From: Patescibacteria group bacterium
Lineage (GTDB): Bacteria > Patescibacteriota > Minisyncoccia > Phycocordibacterales > PALSA-1337
Reading direction: 5' to 3'
Length of the DNA: 64,000 nucleotides
Assembly (NCBI GenBank): GCA_038065395.1
Contig: JBBTRB010000004.1
Coordinates: 70,042-134,041, forward strand
How positions within the stretch are numbered: position 1 is the stretch's first letter; the number at the start of each line of letters is the position of its first letter. Under the pieces are notes generated by a model. It made no database searches, was not told the origin of the DNA, and saw nothing but the letters and a program-made list of their open reading frames with translations. The position numbers and the translations under genes were made by a program. Of the stretch, positions 1 through 53,387 are shown in pieces.

Positions 1-1911
1 CGATCCAAGGTCAAAGTTTCTGCACCTCATACTCCGAAATACGCTCGCTTCGAAGGTAAGCTATTCGAAACTACTGTTGGTCGTATTCTCCTCAACAACA
101 TCCTTCCTGAAGATTATCCATTCATCAATGAAGAAGTCGGTCGCAAGCGTCTCGGTATCGTGATCGACGATATGATCAACCTCCACGGTTCAGAGAAAGT
201 TGCTCCGATCCTCGACCGCGTCAAGAAGTTCGGTTTCGGCTACGCTACCTACTCGGGTACCACATGGGGCATCGATGATATCAAGATCCCTGAAGCCAAA
301 GGCGAGATCGTCGCTCGTGGCAAAGAACAGGCACATCTCGTTACCAAGCAGTTCGAAGAAGGACTCCTCACCGAAGAAGAGCGCATTCGCAAGCACATCG
401 AAATCTGGCAGAAGTCCAAGGGAGAAGTCGAAAAGGCTATTCCTGCATCACTCGACAAGACTGGTTCTGTCTATGACATGATCACTTCAGGTGCTCGCGG
501 ATCGATGTCTCAGATCACTCAAATGGCCGGTATGAAAGGTCTTATCTCCTCAGTTTCAGGAGAGACGATCGAGTTCCCGATCCTTTCATGTGCAAAGGAA
601 GGTTTGACTCCGATCGAATACTTCATCACGACTCACGGATCACGTAAGGGTCTCACTGACACTGCGCTCAACACAGCGAAGGCGGGATACCTCACTCGTA
701 AGTTGTTCGTGGTCGCTCAGGATGTCGTCGTATCAGAAACAGATTGTGGTACCAAAGAGGGCATCGTCATCCACAAACAGAGTGCTTCAGGAATGAACAT
801 TCCATTGTCCAAGAACATCCGTGGCCGACTCCTCGCTGAAGATATCAAGGATGCAGCAGGAACAGTCATGTTCAAGAAGGGTCACCTCGTCTCCAAGGCC
901 GACGCAACTCATATCGAAGAGTCAGGTATCGAGCATGTAAACGTCCGCTCACCACTCTCATGCAAAACCGTTCGTGGTGTGTGTACAAAGTGTTATGGTC
1001 TCGATCTCGGTAAGAATGCACTGGTCAATCTCGGCGAAGCCGTAGGAACTGTCGCTGCTCAAGCGATCGGTGAACCAGGAACACAGCTGACCATGCGTAC
1101 CTTCCACGCCGGAGGAACCGCATCACAAGGTGGAGACATTACTGCAGGTCTGCCACGCGTCGAAGAAATCTTCGAAAAGCGTCGTCCTCGCAACCCGGCT
1201 GTTGTTGCATCTGTTGATGGTACCGTCATGTCAGTAGAAGATATGGGTAAAGAAAAGATCATCCGTGTATTGCCAGATCTCGAAGAGGCAGTAGGCAAGA
1301 AGCGCACAGAAGTCGAGTATGTTTTCCCATACCGCCGTACGACTCTCGTTCGTATCGGAGATAAGGTCAAGAAAGGCCAGCTCATCACCGACGGTTCTGC
1401 TGATATCGATGAAGTATATGAGTTTGGTGGCGAAGAGCGTGCCAAGGAATACGTCATCAGTGAAGTTGGTAAGATCTACGAACTCCAAGGCGAGACCGTG
1501 TCACGCAAGCACATCGAGCTCATCGTCAAGCAGATGTTCTCACGTCGCCGCGTCGTCAAGGCAGGGGATACGGATCTCACCGAAGGTATGATCGTCGATG
1601 ACACTTATCTCTTCGAAGAGAATGCAGAGACCAAGGATGCTGGTGGCATGCCTGCAGAGGCCAAGAAGTTGGTCATGGGTATCACCGAAACATCTCTGTC
1701 TCGCAAGAGTTTCCTCTCGGCCGCGTCGTTCCAACACACTACTCGTGTGCTCATCGCCAACTCCGTTCGTGGTGCACAGGACGACCTCACTGGTCTCATG
1801 GAGAACGTCATCATCGGACGTCTGGTCCCTGCTGGTTCTGGATTTGCTGGATCACCGAAGAAAGAGATGGTAGATAGTCTCAAAGCCAACCGAAAGGCGA
1901 TAGAGGAGTAG
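1..1911 (+). CDS. rpoC: DNA-directed RNA polymerase subunit beta' (C-terminal part; 5' end lies outside the window)
   Basis: Frame 1 is open from position 1 (RSKVKVSAPHTPKYARFEGKLFETTVGRILLNN...). Conserved beta' C-terminal regions are present (NADFDGDQM-downstream segments, trigger loop/bridge-like GEPGTQLTMRTFHAGG). Confidence 0.95.
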   Translation, partial: RSKVKVSAPHTPKYARFEGKLFETTVGRILLNNILPEDYPFINEEVGRKRLGIVIDDMINLHGSEKVAPILDRVKKFGFGYATYSGTTWGIDDIKIPEAKGEIVARGKEQAHLVTKQFEEGLLTEEERIRKHIEIWQKSKGEVEKAIPASLDKTGSVYDMITSGARGSMSQITQMAGMKGLISSVSGETIEFPILSCAKEGLTPIEYFITTHGSRKGLTDTALNTAKAGYLTRKLFVVAQDVVVSETDCGTKEGIVIHKQSASGMNIPLSKNIRGRLLAEDIKDAAGTVMFKKGHLVSKADATHIEESGIEHVNVRSPLSCKTVRGVCTKCYGLDLGKNALVNLGEAVGTVAAQAIGEPGTQLTMRTFHAGGTASQGGDITAGLPRVEEIFEKRRPRNPAVVASVDGTVMSVEDMGKEKIIRVLPDLEEAVGKKRTEVEYVFPYRRTTLVRIGDKVKKGQLITDGSADIDEVYEFGGEERAKEYVISEVGKIYELQGETVSRKHIELIVKQMFSRRRVVKAGDTDLTEGMIVDDTYLFEENAETKDAGGMPAEAKKLVMGITETSLSRKSFLSAASFQHTTRVLIANSVRGAQDDLTGLMENVIIGRLVPAGSGFAGSPKKEMVDSLKANRKAIEE

Positions 1912-4352: not shown

Positions 4353-4375
4353 TGAACTTTATAGAGAAAAGCTAA

Positions 4376-4405
4376 ACAAAAAACCGCGATAAGCGGATTT
4401 TTTGA
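4376..4405. terminator. Bidirectional rho-independent terminator (aaaaaaccgcgataagcggattttttg)
   Basis: GC hairpin ccgcg-ataa-gcgg flanked by an A-run and a T-run. It sits downstream of dnaG (+) and of the minus-strand tRNA-like RNA. Confidence 0.7.
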
Positions 4406-4479
4406 AACATACCCTCGGCAGGACCTCCTTCGACAAGATTAATACAATGGTATTCTTGTTGAAATAAAAAGTCAAGTGA

Positions 4480-4550
4480 TGGTGGAGGTGAGGGGAATCG
4501 AACCCCTATGTTTATCTTGTCGAAGGATAACATCCGGCCTTGGCACCCCC
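4480..4550 (-). ncRNA. tRNA-like small RNA, copy 1 (71 nt)
   Basis: 7-bp acceptor stem GGGGGUG/CACCUCC. T-arm AGGGG-UUCGAUU-CCCCU. Discriminator A and encoded CCA. The body is 67 nt before the discriminator, about 5 nt too short for a cloverleaf. It is preceded by a conserved leader hairpin and by motif copy E. Confidence 0.6.
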
Positions 4551-4592
4551 ACGCGGGAAGATATCTATCCTCCGCAGGGTAACCATATCAGG

Positions 4593-4634
4593 TCGAGATG
4601 AAGAAACGATGAATTTAGGTTAAATTCTTGATAA
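4593..4634 (-). promoter_or_regulatory. Conserved upstream motif, copy E (transcription orientation: ttatcaagaatttaacctaaattcatcgtttcttcatctcgacc)
   Basis: Shares the core TTT(A/T)AC/GAGAC-TAAATTCAT-CGTTTCTT-CATCTC with the other copies. It sits about 45 nt upstream of the tRNA-like RNA 5' end. Confidence 0.55.
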
Positions 4635-4668
4635 AAAACAAAAAAACACACGTATCGAGCCATACCCC

Positions 4669-6376: not shown

Positions 6377-9370
6377 ATGTCACTCCCTTCCTCAACTTCT
6401 CCCGTATTCGACCGGGCATATCGAACCCTCAATGCTGCCCAAAAGAAGGCTGTAGATACGATCGAGGGTCCGGTAGTCGTGATCGCAGGTCCAGGTACTG
6501 GTAAGACGACGCTATTGACGCTACGTATCGCAAACATCTTGCGTCTGACCGATACTGCTCCTGACAGTATCCTGGCATTGACCTTCACCGAGTCGGGAGC
6601 TTTTGCGATGCGTCGCAAGCTGCTCGAGACGATAGGTCCTGCGGCGTATCGAGTGGCGATCCATACATTCCACGGGTTTGCCTCGCAGGTGATCGAACAT
6701 CACCAGGATTATTTCCCCCGTATCATCGGTTCGAAGCTCATTACCGAACCAGAACAGATACGGATCATCCAAAAGATCATCGAATCTCGAGACATAGAGA
6801 TGCTCAGACCATTCGGAGATCCAGAGTATTACGTGTCCCCAGTGCTCCGAGAGATACATATTCTCAAGAGAGAGAACATCACTCCGGCAGAGTTAGCACA
6901 GAGTATCGAGGCGGAAGCCTCTCAGGAGGTCAAGCGCTCCGCCACCGAACAGGAGAAATACGAAAAGCGAACTCTCAAAAACAAGGAGCTGGCTCTAGTG
7001 TACGCACGATACGAAAAGGCATTGGCCAAAGAGAAATATTATGACTTCGACGACATGTTGCTCGAGGTCATCCGTATCATGGAGTCACAGCCAGAATTCA
7101 AACTTATCCTACAAGAACAGTACCAGTATATCTTGGCTGATGAACATCAGGATGCCAATGCGGCTCAGAATCGCATATTAGAGCTCCTGTCGGACTTCCA
7201 TGATTCACCCAACCTTTTCATTGTTGGAGATGACAAGCAGGCGATCTATCGATTCCAAGGAGCGTCTCTCGAGAACTTCCTCTATTTTTCTCACAAATAT
7301 CCTGATGCAGTAGTCATCGATCTTGAGCACAACTATCGTTCTCACCAGGTCATACTCGATGCGTCTCATAGTGTGATCACCAACAACCCTGGTATGCCAG
7401 GTAGAACACATGCGAAGCTCATATCTCTCCAAGTCGGTGGGGGACCAGTGCATGTTTCGGAATATATGACAGCAGATGACGAACGTATCGGTGTGATGCA
7501 TGCGATCAAGAAGTTGATCGATGGTGGAGAGAAACATTCCGAAATAGCGATCCTGTATCGCGACAACAAACATTCAGGACCTCTTTCGGACATGCTCCGT
7601 TCGGAAGGTATACCTCATCGAGTCGAATCCGAAACAGATATCATGCACGAAGTCGACGTCGTCAAGATTGTTACATTATGCAAAGCGATCTTCGACCCTT
7701 CGGATGATGCGGTGTTGGCACAAGCGCTCCTCTTGCCAGAACTTGCAGTCGACCCGGCGCATGTCATGGAGATCAGTGAACGTGCCTATCGTGACAAGAA
7801 GCCTCTACATCAGTGTATCAAGTCCTCATCGCGGACAACCTATGCAGACATACACCGTGCCTACGACAAGATCGTCCGCTGGTCACGAGACGCTAACACG
7901 CTCTCATTTACCGTATTTTTGCAGAAGATTATCCAGGAAACAGGCTTCTATACATCGATAGTCGAAGCACCAGACTCACTCGACAGGATGCATGCACTCA
8001 ATGCTTTCTATGAATATATTACTGACGCCTCTCGGTCAATGAAGACCTTCCGTCTCAAAGAGTTTATTGCATATATCACCGTCATCGAGGAACACGGACT
8101 CTCTCGACGCAAAACTCATGGCGAACACACCGTAGGAGTCAGGCTGATGACGGCACATCGGGCCAAAGGTCAAGAATTCAACCATGTATTCATCGTGCAT
8201 GCAGTCGATGGTGTATGGGGGAGTCGTTCTTCTCGTAACCTCTTCCATATACCGGTGATCGAGCATGCTCGTGCCACGGGTCGTATCGATGATGAAAGGA
8301 GACTCTTCTACGTTGCGCTCACTCGTGCACGCGAGACGGTGACTATCAGTTGGGCGCAAGGAGATGGCTCAGAAGGTGCGGTCGCGAGTAGGTTCATCAC
8401 TGAGATAGACCCGAGATGTATGGTCATAGAAAAGAAAGACAAAGGCGTCGCGCATGCAACGCTTCATCGGGTTTTGGGCTCTACTCTCCATCCCTATGCA
8501 GACAAGAACACTCTCCTCAACCCAGAGTTCGTACGTTCGAAATTCCTAGCACAACCACTGTCGGTGACACATCTCAACAACTACATCGAATGTCCCTGGA
8601 GATACTTCTTCGTGAACCTGATCCGCATCCCTCAGGCCGAGAGTAAGCATCAGCTCTATGGAACAGCGATCCATGCAGTATTGCGAACATTCTTTGCGTC
8701 GTATGCACAAGGAGAAGACATGGTCCTCAAACGCATGATCGAGATCTTTCGTGGACAGATAGACATGTTGCCCTTCATGGCTGATGACCGAGAAGACTCC
8801 TTCAAAAAGGGTAAGAAGGCTCTCGAAGGCTATTACAAGACCTATTATCCACACTGGAACCGCGCGGTATTGCTCGAATATGCAGTGCGCGGCACAGAAG
8901 TCTCAGTGGACAAGGATACAGTAGTAACACTGTCGGGTAAGCTCGATAAGATCGAGATCAATACTGATGATTCGGTGACTGTCGTAGACTACAAAACCGG
9001 AAAACCCAAATCCCGTAACCATATCCAGGGTAATGTGTCCTCGGACGCTGGTGGAGAAGGGAACTATTTCCGACAACTGGCTTTCTACAAACTACTGCTC
9101 GATGGTGATACAAAATTCAGGATGAAGTATGGCGAGATCGACTTTGTGGAGCCGAATGATCGCGGTATATACAAAAAAGAAAGATTCGAGATCACGGATA
9201 CAGATATCGAGAAGGTGACCGGAGAGATCGTCTCTATGTCTCGTGCTCTGCTCAGTCTCTCTTTTGTGGGAACAACATGCGATAATAAGAAGTGTGAGTA
9301 TTGCATGCTCGGCAAGATCATATCGCGAGTCAATACAGCCCGTAATTCAACCGAATGGAAACACTTATAA
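6377..9370 (+). CDS. UvrD/PcrA-family SF1 helicase fused to a C-terminal PD-(D/E)xK (RecB/Cas4-like) nuclease with a Cys cluster
   Basis: Helicase motif I VVVIAGPGTGKTT and motif II ILADEHQD. C-terminal GKLDKIEI...VVDYKTGKP...QLAFYKLLL nuclease motifs, plus Cys residues ECPWRY...CDNKKCEYC. The start is placed at ATG 6377 (MSLPSS...) rather than 6116. Confidence 0.85.
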   Translation: MSLPSSTSPVFDRAYRTLNAAQKKAVDTIEGPVVVIAGPGTGKTTLLTLRIANILRLTDTAPDSILALTFTESGAFAMRRKLLETIGPAAYRVAIHTFHGFASQVIEHHQDYFPRIIGSKLITEPEQIRIIQKIIESRDIEMLRPFGDPEYYVSPVLREIHILKRENITPAELAQSIEAEASQEVKRSATEQEKYEKRTLKNKELALVYARYEKALAKEKYYDFDDMLLEVIRIMESQPEFKLILQEQYQYILADEHQDANAAQNRILELLSDFHDSPNLFIVGDDKQAIYRFQGASLENFLYFSHKYPDAVVIDLEHNYRSHQVILDASHSVITNNPGMPGRTHAKLISLQVGGGPVHVSEYMTADDERIGVMHAIKKLIDGGEKHSEIAILYRDNKHSGPLSDMLRSEGIPHRVESETDIMHEVDVVKIVTLCKAIFDPSDDAVLAQALLLPELAVDPAHVMEISERAYRDKKPLHQCIKSSSRTTYADIHRAYDKIVRWSRDANTLSFTVFLQKIIQETGFYTSIVEAPDSLDRMHALNAFYEYITDASRSMKTFRLKEFIAYITVIEEHGLSRRKTHGEHTVGVRLMTAHRAKGQEFNHVFIVHAVDGVWGSRSSRNLFHIPVIEHARATGRIDDERRLFYVALTRARETVTISWAQGDGSEGAVASRFITEIDPRCMVIEKKDKGVAHATLHRVLGSTLHPYADKNTLLNPEFVRSKFLAQPLSVTHLNNYIECPWRYFFVNLIRIPQAESKHQLYGTAIHAVLRTFFASYAQGEDMVLKRMIEIFRGQIDMLPFMADDREDSFKKGKKALEGYYKTYYPHWNRAVLLEYAVRGTEVSVDKDTVVTLSGKLDKIEINTDDSVTVVDYKTGKPKSRNHIQGNVSSDAGGEGNYFRQLAFYKLLLDGDTKFRMKYGEIDFVEPNDRGIYKKERFEITDTDIEKVTGEIVSMSRALLSLSFVGTTCDNKKCEYCMLGKIISRVNTARNSTEWKHL

Positions 9371-15939: not shown

Positions 15940-15947
15940 GGGTTAAA

Positions 15948-15977
15948 CAAAAAACCGCCAATGTGGCGGTTTTTTTG
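15948..15977. terminator. Bidirectional rho-independent terminator (aaaaaaccgccaatgtggcggttttttt)
   Basis: Stem ccgcca/tggcgg flanked by A and T runs. It lies downstream of the 14965-15939 gene and of tRNA-like RNA copy 2. Confidence 0.75.
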
Positions 15978-16046
15978 TTGGGACTTACCTTTTAGAATCC
16001 TCCCTCAGCAATGCAATAAGTGTATTCTAAAGTTAGTAAGAAGTCA

Positions 16047-16116
16047 AGGTGGAGGTGAGGGGAATCGAACTCCCTAAGTCCTTCTTGCTGAGGGAAGACT
16101 TCCTCCAAGGCACCCC
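16047..16116 (-). ncRNA. tRNA-like small RNA, copy 2 (70 nt; CC encoded, terminal A not encoded)
   Basis: Acceptor GGGGGUG/CACCUCC. T-arm AGGGAG-UUCGAUU-CCCCU, with one mismatch. Conserved leader with hairpin GGAAAGUGAAAACUUUCC. Preceded by motif copy F. Confidence 0.5.
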
Positions 16117-16161
16117 CACGCAGGAAAGTTTTCACTTTCCGCAAAGTAACCATAACAGGGT

Positions 16162-16204
16162 GGTATGAAGAAATGATGAATTTAGTCTCAAGAAACGATA
16201 AAAT
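16162..16204 (-). promoter_or_regulatory. Conserved upstream motif, copy F (tttatcgtttcttgagactaaattcatcatttcttcatacc)
   Basis: Near-identical to copies A-C over its first 27 nt. Confidence 0.55.
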
Positions 16205-43417: not shown

Positions 43418-43485
43418 ATAGAAAGTATAACAAAGACATTTAAAAGAAAAAACGCCCGTTAGGACGTTTTCTCATTTTTCATTTG

Positions 43486-43794
43486 CTCCGGAGACAGGAT
43501 TCGAACCTGTGACCAATCGCTTACGTATACTCCACTATTACTAATGGTACGGACTATATCATTCCCATATTCCACGGTCAGTGGAAGTTAGGGAAGAGGC
43601 GCTTCGTCCGATGCAACATCGGACTACTCCCCGAAGGGATAGTCTCTACACCTTCCCCGACATGATGTCGGGGCTTGGCTCGGTATTGCCCATGGGGATG
43701 GGTTTCACCGAATTCACCTCTTTTTCGATCCGTCTTTCAACGAAAAGCTGCAATAAGTTTACAGGCGACTGCTCTACCGCTGAGCTACTCCGGA
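43486..43794 (-). tRNA. tRNA-Asn(GUU) interrupted by a 237-nt group I intron between anticodon-loop positions 35 and 36
   Basis: 5' exon 43761-43794: UCCGGAG-UA-GCUC-AGCGGUA-GAGC-A-GUCGC-CUGU. 3' exon 43486-43523: UAA-GCGAU-UGGUC-ACAGG-UUCGAAU-CCUGU-CUCCGGA-G. The spliced product is close to E. coli tRNA-Asn, with the identical CUGUUAA loop and G73. The intron starts after U. Its internal guide GCAG pairs with exon CUGU (U.G at the splice site). It has AGACUA...UAGUC P7-like strands and ends in G. Confidence 0.75.
43524..43760 (-). other. Group I intron (no internal ORF)
   Basis: See the tRNA-Asn entry. The P1 helix, ~237-nt size and terminal G fit a tRNA-type group I intron. The track ORFs inside it are spurious. 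Confidence 0.65.
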
Positions 43795-44039
43795 ATGTAT
43801 TTTTTAAGGAACTCCTTTCCGTATCCACTCTTCAATCTTTTCTCTTCTTGCCTTGCCGCAGACCTATCCTTTCCTACTAACTTACAATATATCATTTTCC
43901 ACGGTCTGTATGGTCGAGTAGAAGTTACTTCACCGGCATTATGTTCGATAAGCCTTTTCTCTGGGTGATAACTCATGCCGACATATATCCTGTGGTCTAC
44001 TTCGCTGAGTAGTGCATATACGTAGTACATCTTCTCCAT
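43785..44039 (-). CDS. Small GIY-YIG nuclease-domain protein (84 aa); its stop codon overlaps the first 10 nt of the tRNA-Asn 5' exon
   Basis: MEKMYYVYALLSEVDHRIYVGMSYHPEKRLIEHNAGEVTSTRPYRPW... shows the GIY-(10-11 aa)-YVG pattern plus the conserved R and E/N. The start is placed at the internal Met; the upstream part of the track ORF overlaps the duplicated exon. Confidence 0.55.
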   Translation of the reverse strand: MEKMYYVYALLSEVDHRIYVGMSYHPEKRLIEHNAGEVTSTRPYRPWKMIYCKLVGKDRSAARQEEKRLKSGYGKEFLKKYIPE

Positions 44040-50106: not shown

Positions 50107-50234
50107 GAGTTTGTACCAGAAACACAAAATCCGCCGAAGCGGATCTTGTAGAAATTTATTGTTCGATACCTCGCAACCTCTCCTCATCAGTGCTAACAAG
50201 TATACTCTTTCTAGATAGCAAGTCAAATTCAAAC

Positions 50235-50305
50235 TGGTGGACCGAACGGGAATCGAACCCGTACGCCTCAGCTGATGAGGAGAGGCTGGCACCATGCCTC
50301 GGCCC
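50235..50305 (-). ncRNA. tRNA-like small RNA, copy 3 (71 nt, CCA encoded)
   Basis: Acceptor GGGCCGA/UCGGUCC, compensatory relative to copies 1 and 2. T-arm ACGGG-UUCGAUU-CCCGU. Leader hairpin GCGGAAGAC-ucu-GUCUUCCCGC. Preceded by motif copy G. Confidence 0.6.
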
Positions 50306-50344
50306 ACGCGGGAAGACAGAGTCTTCCGCACATACACCGTAACA

Positions 50345-50390
50345 GGTTGAAATGAAGAAACGATGAATTTAGGTTAAAGAAACGATAAAG
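50345..50390 (-). promoter_or_regulatory. Conserved upstream motif, copy G (ctttatcgtttctttaacctaaattcatcgtttcttcatttcaacc)
   Basis: Same core as copies D and E. Confidence 0.55.
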
Positions 50391-52492: not shown

Positions 52493-53166
52493 AACCCTCA
52501 TTCTCTCTGCCACACCTTTCAAGTCACTCCCACTACCTCATCGGTTCAGATGAGTTGCGAGCACAATTGAAAACAATCCTTGAAGAAGTACACGGTATCT
52601 CTATTCATGGCAACCCAGACTTTTTTGAGTCTACACACGAAGTCTTCACGATAGACGACTCGCGCAAACTTATTGAGATGCACGGGATTCGCCCAGTTCA
52701 CATTTCAGGGAAAAAGATCGTGATCATCACCATGCAGGGTATCACTGGCGAAGCGCAAAATGCACTGTTGAAGTTGCTCGAAGAGCCGGCAGAGTTTGCG
52801 TACTTTTTCTTGATAGTTCCCTCGGCACATCTACTATTACCAACCGTGAAGTCGCGCCTTACATTGATCGAGACTTCTCGAGCTGAAGTAGAGACGGATA
52901 CGACTGAAGCCATAGCATTCATGAAGGCTTCACCTGCAAAACGTCTCGATATTATCAAAAAGTTACTTGATGATATTTCCAAAGAAAAAAAGACCAAACA
53001 AGACGCGATAAACTTCCTAGATCAAGTACAACGTGTCGTCTATGAAAAGAGGGGAGTGAAGGATGGGTTGAAGAGTCTCGAAACGATCGAGATGGCGCGA
53101 ACGTATATTCATGACCGTGCTCCGTCGCTCAAGATGTTGTTGGAGGGGGTGGCTCTCAGTATTTAA
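52489..53166 (+). CDS. holB: DNA polymerase III delta' subunit-like clamp-loader protein (short)
   Basis: QNALLKLLEEP and TVKSRL (sensor-2/SRC-like) motifs. It lacks a Walker A, as is typical of delta'. 4-nt overlap with the nudix gene. Confidence 0.65.
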   Translation: MKPSFSLPHLSSHSHYLIGSDELRAQLKTILEEVHGISIHGNPDFFESTHEVFTIDDSRKLIEMHGIRPVHISGKKIVIITMQGITGEAQNALLKLLEEPAEFAYFFLIVPSAHLLLPTVKSRLTLIETSRAEVETDTTEAIAFMKASPAKRLDIIKKLLDDISKEKKTKQDAINFLDQVQRVVYEKRGVKDGLKSLETIEMARTYIHDRAPSLKMLLEGVALSI

Positions 53167-53178
53167 GTATAGTAGTCT

Positions 53179-53364
53179 GTCATCCCCGCGAAGGCGGGGA
53201 TCCAGGAGCAAGGGCGTGACAACTTAATTAGATCTACACAACCACCAAATACTGAAGACTTGGCTCTGTAAGTAAATGCCGAACTCCCCAAGTTTATTAT
53301 TTATATAACCTAAGTGAATTATATACTGGAAGTGATTCTGGATCCCCGCCTTCGCGGGGATGAC
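53179..53364. mobile_element. MITE-like element: 27-bp terminal inverted repeats (gtcatccccgcgaaggcggggatccag / ctggatccccgccttcgcggggatgac) flanking ~130 bp of AT-rich non-coding DNA
   Basis: 53179-53205 is the reverse complement of 53338-53364, with a single internal difference. Each TIR is itself a GC hairpin of the REP-like family. Confidence 0.5.
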
Positions 53365-53387
53365 ACACTGTGCTATGATGTGCCCAT

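Follow-up and report, generated by a model that had tools for sequence, protein, structure and literature searches.

Several described RNA systems resemble parts of the element considered here. In a number of type I toxin-antitoxin loci (tisB/istR-1, zorO/orzO and shoB/ohsC) the gene for the antisense small RNA (sRNA) lies adjacent to its partner gene without overlapping it. Pairing between RNA-IN and RNA-OUT of IS10, and in other antisense pairs with YUNR U-turn loops, is initiated at a hairpin loop. Type VIII systems use an RNA as the toxin as well as an RNA antitoxin, an example being SdsR/RyeA (PMC8610362). The alanine identity set is found both in tRNA-Ala and in transfer-messenger RNA (tmRNA, SsrA), and the reduced tmRNAs of mitochondria indicate that the tRNA-like domain alone can persist (PMC3590771). 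The present element occurs in three copies within a stretch of 64,000 nucleotides (64 kb, hereafter the window) from a Patescibacteria group bacterium (contig JBBTRB010000004.1). Each copy encodes a tRNA-like RNA (TLR) and, directly downstream, a predicted sRNA whose 5' end is complementary to it. The most probable explanation, with a probability of roughly 0.6, is a closed two-RNA module, in which an alanine-type mimic of tRNA or tmRNA would be controlled by its private antisense sRNA.

All three loci are on the minus strand, with the TLR running from 4550 to 4480 in copy 1, from 16117 to 16048 in copy 2 and from 50305 to 50235 in copy 3. They occupy gaps of 350–375 bp between plus-strand genes: dnaG and rpoD (copy 1), the gene for an AlbA_2/bPH membrane protein and the open reading frame (ORF) ORF128 (copy 2), and murA and mreB (copy 3). 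No minus-strand gene was found downstream of any of the three. The TLR is 69 nt long in the window loci. Its 7-bp acceptor stem leads through a short junction to a single long hairpin, after which come a canonical T-arm of the GGUUCGAUUCC type, the 3' strand of the acceptor, an A, and CCA or CC. Copies 1 and 2 have the acceptor strands GGGGGUG/CACCUCC, and copy 3 has GGGCCGA/UCGGUCC. The encoded 3' end is CC in copy 2 but CCA in the other two; an encoded CCA is not conserved among relatives. A previous interpretation made from the letters alone (the sequence-only reading) had located the same three minus-strand loci, with the start of copy 2 one base short of its true position at 16117, and its description of acceptor stem, T-arm, discriminator A and 3' ends is borne out. 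A pattern combining leader, body and T-loop has exactly three matches in the window, all at these loci, against 0.00 expected, and a full-sensitivity, unfiltered scan with a covariance model recovers only the same three (71.2 bits for copy 1, 66.1 for copy 3 and 58.4 for copy 2; runner-up 13 bits). ARAGORN calls no tRNA and no tmRNA gene in the whole window, and an Rfam scan at gathering thresholds gave no family matching the loci. Absent from that reading were a G3·U70 pair in all copies, a second promoter, the complementary downstream RNA and a terminator.

Alignment of the whole gaps gives the order of parts as upstream motif, extended -10 box, leader hairpin, TLR, second promoter (P2), a variable stretch, and a hairpin followed by a U-run. 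The P2 of the window copies has the form TTGACT-N16/17-TAnnnT, matches 9–10 of the 12 consensus positions, and begins 1–10 nt past the TLR. Copy 1 has TTGACT-17-TACCAT at 4447–4475 (9/12 in a promoter scan, and conserved across the family), copy 2 has TTGACT-17-TACACT at 16019–16047, starting one base after the encoded CC and recognized by its sequence and family conservation, and copy 3 has TTGACT-16-TATACT at 50199–50226 (10/12). The scan called P2 independently in copies 1 and 3, and the mean over 18 units is 10.1 of 12. The -10 box ends 6–7 nt upstream of the first complementary base in the window copies, and a transcript from P2 would therefore begin with the complementary seed.

The top inverted repeat of each window gap connects the centre of the TLR with the site just after P2. 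Its length is 26, 14 and 17 nt in copies 1, 2 and 3, with a match of 81%, 93% and 94%, respectively, and its sequence is different in each copy. The first 14–17 nt of the predicted P2 transcript match, as a perfect complement, the loop of the long hairpin in its own TLR together with the 5' strand of that hairpin. The predicted sRNAs are 65–80 nt long and end at a terminator. That of copy 1 (4374–4440, about 66 nt) has its seed at 4439–4426, complementary to TLR positions 4527–4514 through an exact match of 14–16 nt (duplex -32.6 kcal/mol, z -5.1), and folds into a terminator hairpin with U-run at about 4403–4374. In copy 2 (15943–16012) the seed at 16012–15998 is complementary to 16098–16085 (-31.0 kcal/mol, z -3.3) and the terminator at 15975–15949 is a perfect 12-bp hairpin, again with a U-run, while copy 3 (50113–50192) has a seed at 50191–50174 complementary to 50288–50272 (-40.0 kcal/mol, z -5.0) and a 12-pair terminator with U-run at 50150–50123 that was called by a scan. 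No conserved ORF was found after P2, the short ORFs differing between copies. A search of the 64-kb window for other targets of the seeds and loops found only the self pairs. Control of a downstream gene through its Shine-Dalgarno sequence was considered and rejected: the window seeds are purine-rich (GAAGGAGG etc.), but no ORF follows, and the seeds of relatives do not resemble Shine-Dalgarno sequences. The terminators (4384–4403, 15949–15975 and 50123–50150) have an A-run/hairpin/U-run form and would also end the transcripts of dnaG, the AlbA_2 gene and murA, which run towards them on the plus strand, so that each may act as a bidirectional terminator for the neighbouring gene.

The same cassette is present in at least 15 independent Patescibacteria-type contigs, designated here by L numbers. 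Scanning species genomes with a strict pattern gave one relevant relative, Parcubacteria bacterium C7867-002 (L002), which has the same architecture without an encoded CCA. The pattern scan of metagenomes returned many plain tRNA-Ala genes together with a class of 67–69-nt bodies, and model searches added two further units in L061, orthologs upstream of mreB in L123, L124 and L127, and one unit in L132. In L016, L024, L032, L053, L061, L089 and L118 a P2 is followed by a downstream complement of 10–16 exact nt, a match equalled in only 0–1 of 200 shuffles. Antisense partners were found in these seven (for each of the three units in L061) and in L002, L080, L123, L124, L127 and L132, with either 0–1 of 200 shuffles as good or a duplex z of -2.2 to -8.2 (-4.6 or lower in most units).

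The two sides of the pairing evolve together. At the orthologous site upstream of mreB, TLR arm and sRNA seed change in concert and 14–15 bp are kept each time: GCCTCTCCTCATCAG in the arm and CTGATGAGGAGAGG in the seed of window copy 3, GCTCCCTCTTGTCAG and CTGACAAGGGGGAG in L123 and L124, and GCTCCCAACTTGTCAT and ATGACAAGTTGGGAG in L127. A 16 × 16 duplex matrix gives a mean of -37.4 kcal/mol for cognate pairs vs -20.8 ± 4.8 for all mismatched combinations. In 14 of the 16 rows no partner does better than the cognate one, the two exceptions being orthologs or near-identical copies. Since mutual pairing alone is conserved, and there is no other good seed site in 64 kb, the pair looks closed. Two members, L031 and L076, differ in arrangement: the TLR gene ends at a terminator, and the complementary RNA is on the opposite strand beyond this shared terminator, so that the two genes converge. 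The promoter tool called a promoter for each of the two partners, positioned for a start at the seed. That of L031 is TTGATT-16-TATAAT, and that of L076 is TTGAAA-18-TACACT, preceded by an upstream TG. Such convergence is compatible neither with a single folded transcript nor with an inverted repeat around a promoter, and argues for pairing in trans.

The minimum free energy (MFE) fold of most members is a compact cloverleaf, made up of the 7-bp acceptor, a D-like hairpin of 2–4 bp with a loop of 3–6 nt that usually contains UGG, a central stem of 5–9 bp with a loop of 7–12 nt, and the T-arm; a variable region is absent. The parts of the copy 1 TLR (4480–4550) are the acceptor at 4550–4544/4490–4484 with its G3·U70 pair, the long hairpin at about 4533–4508 with loop CUUCGACAA, the T-arm at 4507–4491, A73 at 4483 and CCA at 4482–4480. 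In copy 2 (16048–16117) G1 is at 16117, A73 at 16050 and CC at 16049–16048, with loop CCUCAGCAA, and in copy 3 (50235–50305) the acceptor again has G3·U70, the central loop is 12 nt, A73 is at 50238 and CCA at 50237–50235. Copy 3 and most relatives possess the miniature D-like hairpin, which in copy 3 (GGCA-UGG-UGCC) has 4 bp and a UGG loop, and the absence of any D-arm that the sequence-only reading had stated must be revised in this respect; the lack of a canonical 7-nt anticodon loop in the window copies (loops of 9–12 nt), also noted there, was correct.

Across 13 homologs 87% of the cells in the helices are paired vs 65% in shuffles, none of 500 shuffles reaching as high, and double-sided changes occupy 63 cells vs 22; slid controls are 42–59% paired. 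As MAFFT alignments of the bodies repeatedly displaced the 5' strand, a restricted structure and a covariance model were used in their place. Pairing is almost complete, with covariation, in the acceptor (98.7%) and the T-stem (96.9%). Within the acceptor, pairs 4–7 covary while G1:C72, G2:C71, G3·U70 and A73 are invariant, and this identity set is also kept in five members outside the pattern selection (L061b, L061c, L123, L124 and L127). Earlier claims of selection for the acceptor helix, and more generally of a promoter-driven family of structured tRNA-like small RNAs under such selection, are thus supported, and the loci are neither canonical tRNAs nor decayed relics.

From these observations a scheme can be proposed. 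Each locus would be a cassette of ∼300 bp that is complete in itself, encodes no protein and carries its two RNA genes on one strand. The first would be transcribed from P1, an extended -10 promoter with a direct-repeat motif upstream, into a precursor whose leader ends in GCGU, and RNase P-type cleavage would release the 69-nt compact cloverleaf. This TLR has the alanine identity set G1:C72, G2:C71, G3·U70 and A73, and a long hairpin without constraint on its sequence. Once the 3' end had been trimmed, and CCA added to those TLRs that do not encode it, it could be charged by alanyl-tRNA synthetase (AlaRS), because alanine identity does not depend on the anticodon. The second gene would begin 1–33 nt past the TLR, where the near-consensus σ70 promoter P2 would drive an sRNA of 65–80 nt, the 5' end of which would nucleate on the TLR loop in trans, in the manner of RNA-IN/RNA-OUT. 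Pairing would convert the long hairpin to an intermolecular duplex, making the sRNA a private inhibitor or destabilizer of its own TLR. A closed control circuit is suggested because loop and seed drift together with no other detectable partner. The logic would be that of type I and type VIII toxin-antitoxin systems, with a stable structured RNA behind a weak promoter and an antisense RNA behind a strong one.

Comparison with these systems shows both likenesses and differences. Like type I and VIII loci, the cassette has two small neighbouring genes, an sRNA with a strong promoter, and complementarity of 14–20 nt; its paralogues have private specificities, are multi-copy and patchy, and need no other target. 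As in type I, there is an adjacent antisense sRNA gene with partial complementarity to the partner transcript. Unlike type I, the target of the sRNA is tRNA-shaped rather than an mRNA and encodes no toxic peptide, there being no conserved ORF in the partner transcript. In silico, the two non-coding RNAs show pairing, specificity and co-evolution, and one may neutralize the other as in type VIII; SdsR and RyeA, however, are cis-antisense RNAs overlapping on opposite strands, whereas the cassette genes do not overlap. As with IS10, the 5' end of one RNA would meet the hairpin loop of its partner and proceed down one strand of the stem, and many TLR loops begin Y-U-N-R in the fashion of an anticodon loop, as YUNR antisense pairs do; unlike IS10, there is no transposase mRNA and the hairpin is inside a tRNA-like fold. 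YrlA, mascRNA and Bacillus cereus tRNA-Other are likewise small stable RNAs that borrow the fold and processing of tRNA, but none of them combines alanine identity with a cognate antisense sRNA gene, and they are unrelated to the TLR in sequence. Both components, a tRNA/tmRNA-like RNA and a trans-encoded antisense sRNA, are of known kinds, and so is the principle of their pairing. A full-text literature search returned no description of such an RNA pair, united in a co-evolving cassette that encodes no protein, and Rfam has no family covering the TLR or the sRNA.

A toxin-antitoxin-like role is possible but doubtful, and would rest on the analogy with the systems just described. Equally tentative is the proposal that the cassette is an RNA-only addiction or defence module, in which the stable, alanine-charged TLR would mimic the tRNA-like domain of tmRNA or act as a mischarging tRNA. 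If this were true, the TLR would be a poison to ribosome rescue or to translation, or would sequester AlaRS, SmpB or EF-Tu, with nothing but continuous production of its cognate sRNA to restrain it; the toxin would be released on loss of the cassette or on a shut-off of transcription (e.g. by phage attack). No earlier toxin-antitoxin-like system would have a tRNA mimic as its toxin, and this one would belong to the reduced genomes of Patescibacteria. This group comprises a large share of bacterial diversity and has very small genomes, in spite of which several copies of a cassette encoding no protein are kept. Should the two-RNA module be real, it would represent a new class of tRNA/tmRNA mimic and a new RNA-RNA control circuit, with the variable hairpin as the address for a private antisense RNA.

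A number of points weigh against the two-RNA module. Both promoters, the processing sites and the existence of two separate transcripts are predictions from sequence. There is no terminator between the TLR and P2, so that transcripts from P1 must run into the sRNA region, and the pairing could form in cis, as the whole-unit MFE fold predicts. The G3·U70 pair and A73 were imposed by the pattern used to search metagenomes, and their universality depends on the three window copies and on five members that came from model searches or from synteny. A D-like hairpin is foreign to tmRNA, and all scores against the tmRNA model are under the Rfam threshold. Opening of the acceptor stem by complementarity beyond the seed, which co-folds of the window copies had suggested, was rejected as non-significant over 16 units (mean z -0.45, with only two of the 16 having z below -1.65), and hence does not supply a route by which pairing would inactivate the TLR. 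Finally, control might run the other way, through titration of the sRNA by the TLR.

The first of the alternatives is that P1 gives a single transcript of ∼230 nt which folds in cis. The complementarity would then be a long-range intramolecular helix, for instance in a structured non-coding RNA or a self-masking precursor, and P2 an A/T-rich linker. MFE folding of whole units gives precisely this helix (z values of -4.4 to -5.2), and no terminator separates the TLR from the segment downstream. A linker, however, has no reason to keep TTGACA-17-TATAAT, while P2 is near-consensus in every tandem unit and correctly spaced for a start at the seed, and the partner genes of L031 and L076, each with a promoter of its own, lie on the other strand and hence cannot belong to the same transcript. 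This explanation is considered unlikely.

With control reversed, the sRNA would be a trans-acting regulator of mRNAs, and the TLR, stable and shaped like a tRNA, would serve it as a sponge or decoy. There are known sponges that originate from tRNA precursors, as in the case of 3'ETS-leuZ, and the sRNA does have the classic build of a trans-acting regulator, in which an A/C-rich linker joins the 5' seed to an intrinsic terminator. Yet the seeds change rapidly between orthologs together with the TLR arm, and are thus ill-suited to conserved external targets; no other target-like sites exist within 64 kb; and the conserved part is the acceptor/T minihelix of the TLR rather than the sRNA. On balance a sponge is possible but unlikely.

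A third alternative, raised already by the sequence-only reading, is that the TLRs are genuine but highly unusual decoding tRNAs with a conserved leader, such as compact forms of tRNA-Ala or tRNA-Asp. They fold as a cloverleaf with a 7-bp acceptor and a T-arm with a GTTCRA-type loop, many of the central loops resemble Y-U-NNN-A-A, and a few relatives whose loops have 7 nt are identified by ARAGORN as tRNA-Asp, tRNA-Ser or tRNA-Arg. One relative, L080, even has a full-size cloverleaf with the anticodon GUC. On the other hand, the window copies, which ARAGORN misses, have loops of 9–12 nt on stems of 5–9 bp in place of the 5-bp anticodon stem and 7-nt loop, and instead of a normal D-arm members have one of 2–4 bp with a 3–6-nt loop. 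The loops read GUC, AUC, UGA, GCG, UAAC, UCGAC etc. despite uniform G3·U70 and A73, i.e. acceptor identity disagrees with the anticodon-like loop and is that of alanine in every member, whatever the ‘anticodon’. Units are also missing from close relatives, and each has an RNA dedicated to pairing with the analogue of the anticodon arm. Because of the loop sizes, the uniform alanine identity and the patchy presence, the TLRs are not canonical decoding tRNAs, and the more general idea of non-canonical ones is disfavoured as improbable.

The unit in L080 (5613–5800, plus strand) deserves separate mention. Its canonical cloverleaf carries the alanine-type G3·U70 and A73, and a perfect antisense copy of the anticodon arm is present ∼47 nt downstream (duplex -44.7 kcal/mol, z -7.5); the unit has a transposase-like ORF on one side and an unknown ORF on the other. 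It shows that the family grades into the shapes of real tRNAs, and from its sequence could be an ancestral form of the family, or a tRNA that inserts alanine at aspartate codons. The ARAGORN labels for L016, L069, L076, L046 and L080 are tRNA-Asp(gtc or atc), tRNA-Ser(tga) and tRNA-Arg(gcg), despite the alanine-type acceptors. Such mislabelling of family members by tRNA finders can distort the tRNA inventories of Patescibacteria, in which missing tRNA-Asp and tRNA-Asn genes are already debated (PMC13011429).

The nearest Rfam match of the TLR is tmRNA (RF00023), which it aligns with from end to end (model positions 1–374) with the interior deleted. Only positions 1–19 and 346–374 are covered, and 22 nt replace 326 model positions. 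Scores are 35.5 bits for copy 1, 24.8 for copy 2 and 42.9 for the best relative, L118, the curated threshold being 47; copy 3 gave no match to the model at E ≤ 0.01. Permissive Rfam scans returned only sub-threshold matches, to tmRNA and, as second best, to mascRNA (32 bits). The TLR has in common with tmRNA a 7-bp acceptor with G3·U70 and A73, a canonical T-arm, a GG-containing analogue of the D-loop, and a helix at the place of the anticodon arm, and the nearest tmRNA form is the reduced one of jakobid mitochondria, without an mRNA-like domain and contiguous in Jakoba libera. It differs in that the D-region forms a small hairpin, and an mRNA-like domain, resume codon, tag ORF, stop and pseudoknots were not found in it. 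Moreover, tmRNA is usually single-copy, while the TLR is multi-copy, patchy and cassette-like, with a dedicated antisense RNA. Neither smpB nor ssrA was seen in the unit-carrying sequences examined.

These similarities would allow a tmRNA-like rescue RNA that is split, with the sRNA as a template in trans, or a lone TLR comparable to the reduced mitochondrial tmRNAs. Two-piece tmRNAs joined by RNA-RNA pairing do exist, as do reduced ones lacking the mRNA-like domain (PMC3590771), and the model alignment and alanine identity set fit well with them. Against this are the sub-threshold scores, the patchy distribution with three diverged copies in 64 kb and three in 3 kb of L061, and the sRNAs of the window and L002, which by eye share no reading frame, resume codon or stop in three frames. 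The sRNA also leaves the helix at its elbow-proximal end, where tmRNA does so at the distal end. A split tmRNA is accordingly held to be quite improbable.

The cassette behaves as a discrete unit. In L125, whose MreB is 92% identical, murA and mreB are 37 bp apart and the cassette is absent; compared with the occupied sites this is a clean indel of ∼300 bp, extending from the terminator to the upstream motif, with the -10 box of mreB outside it. Three of six mreB neighbourhoods are occupied. No protein neighbour recurs across the loci, the flanking genes being unrelated, and no recombinase gene was found among them. That the inverted repeats flank a promoter and the cassette is an indel between relatives might point to a feature of the DNA itself or to a relic (a tRNA or tmRNA pseudogene, the repeats of an invertible promoter, or a recombination site), but this is hardly credible given the compensatory changes that keep the helices, repeats that differ in every unit and hence offer no common site to a recombinase, the lack of a linked recombinase gene, and the partners in L031 and L076 that lie beyond a terminator rather than around a promoter.

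A link to the AlbA_2 protein, or to a MazF-like RNase, the gene for which was not located, had been put forward by the sequence-only reading as a speculation and is not supported. The AlbA_2 domain of the copy 2 neighbour is confirmed, but it is tied to the cassette at a single site by synteny, adjoining only copy 2 and its counterpart in L002, and about a dozen other loci have unrelated neighbours. In L002 the unit (600–1000, minus strand) is flanked by typA and the AlbA_2 gene and thus occupies the same syntenic position as window copy 2 (15943–16199). Its TLR and seed are almost identical to those of window copy 1 rather than copy 2, a pattern that suggests cassette replacement or gene conversion.

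Three complete tandem units occur within 3 kb of L061 (314–2698, minus strand), each with its own P2 and seed, and two of the three have the T-loop GTTCAATTC. L132 (IMGVR_UViG_3300044698_000441) is a 7-kb contig from a viral collection with a complete unit at ∼6603–6800 on the reverse strand, comprising a TLR, a seed of 17 nt and, as P2, TTGACG-17-TATAAT. A capsid-like ORF of L037 adjoins a TLR for which no partner could be detected. An association with phages was nevertheless rejected: L132, from IMG/VR, has one complete unit, and the other viral matches were plain tRNAs or had no partner detected, one of them being a TLR-like body.

The upstream motif (4598–4634 in copy 1, 16165–16199 in copy 2 and 50352–50386 in copy 3) is a conserved alignment block. 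It contains direct repeats of the ATCGTTTCTT type ∼22 bp apart in copy 1, ATCGTTTCTT followed by ATCATTTCTT in copy 2, and ATCGTTTCTT twice with a 22-bp period in copy 3. A 19-mer from it, AAATTCATCNTTTCTTCAT, occurs exactly three times in the window against 0.09 expected, which agrees with the common motif originally reported. It is better conserved than the RNAs themselves, lies between P1 and the divergent promoters of rpoD, ORF128 and mreB, and is only partly retained in L002, L123 and L124. It may be a binding site for a putative regulator, or an UP-like site for P1.

P1 is predicted from its conserved extended -10 box, TGnTAyGGT in the three copies: TG-A-TATGGT at 4582–4590, TG-T-TATGGT at 16149–16157 and TG-T-TACGGT at 50336–50344. 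The corresponding box is TGATACGCT or TGATAAGGT in L002, L047, L123 and L124. No matching -35 box was found, and the best two-hexamer promoter site upstream of the TLR scores 7.9 of 12, compared with 10.1 for P2, which fits with P1 being the weaker, extended -10 promoter. The leader (4551–4575, 16118–16142 and 50306–50329) has a hairpin, 5'-terminal in copy 1, followed by GCGU, with U at position -1 directly before G1 of the TLR. RNase P is predicted to cleave after this GCGU (after U4551 in copy 1). Variants of the hairpin in copies and orthologs include GGAAGAC/GTCTTCC, GGAAGAU/UUCUUCC and GGACAG/CUGUCC, so that the compensatory changes described previously are real and continue in the orthologs, including those of copy 3.

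Two other RNA features were noted in the window. A weak Rfam match to WsnRNA46 at 53162–53381 on the plus strand (35.6 bits vs a threshold of 65.3, E = 0.0014) is probably due to chance. At 43480–43800 on the minus strand there is a tRNA-Asn(GUU) gene, missed by ARAGORN, in which a group I intron separates anticodon position 35 from position 36, with a 5' exon ending in GTCGCCTGT and a 3' exon running from TAAGCGAT to CTCCGGAGCA. A local scan places the intron at 43531–43770 (RF00028, 61.6 bits, threshold 50); the scan of the whole window at gathering thresholds missed it, speed filters being able to lose true matches in long inputs. Intron-split tRNA-Asn genes have already been described in Patescibacteria (PMC13011429). 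In four of the six relatives fetched (L123–L126) an intron-less tRNA-Asn is found at the syntenic place.

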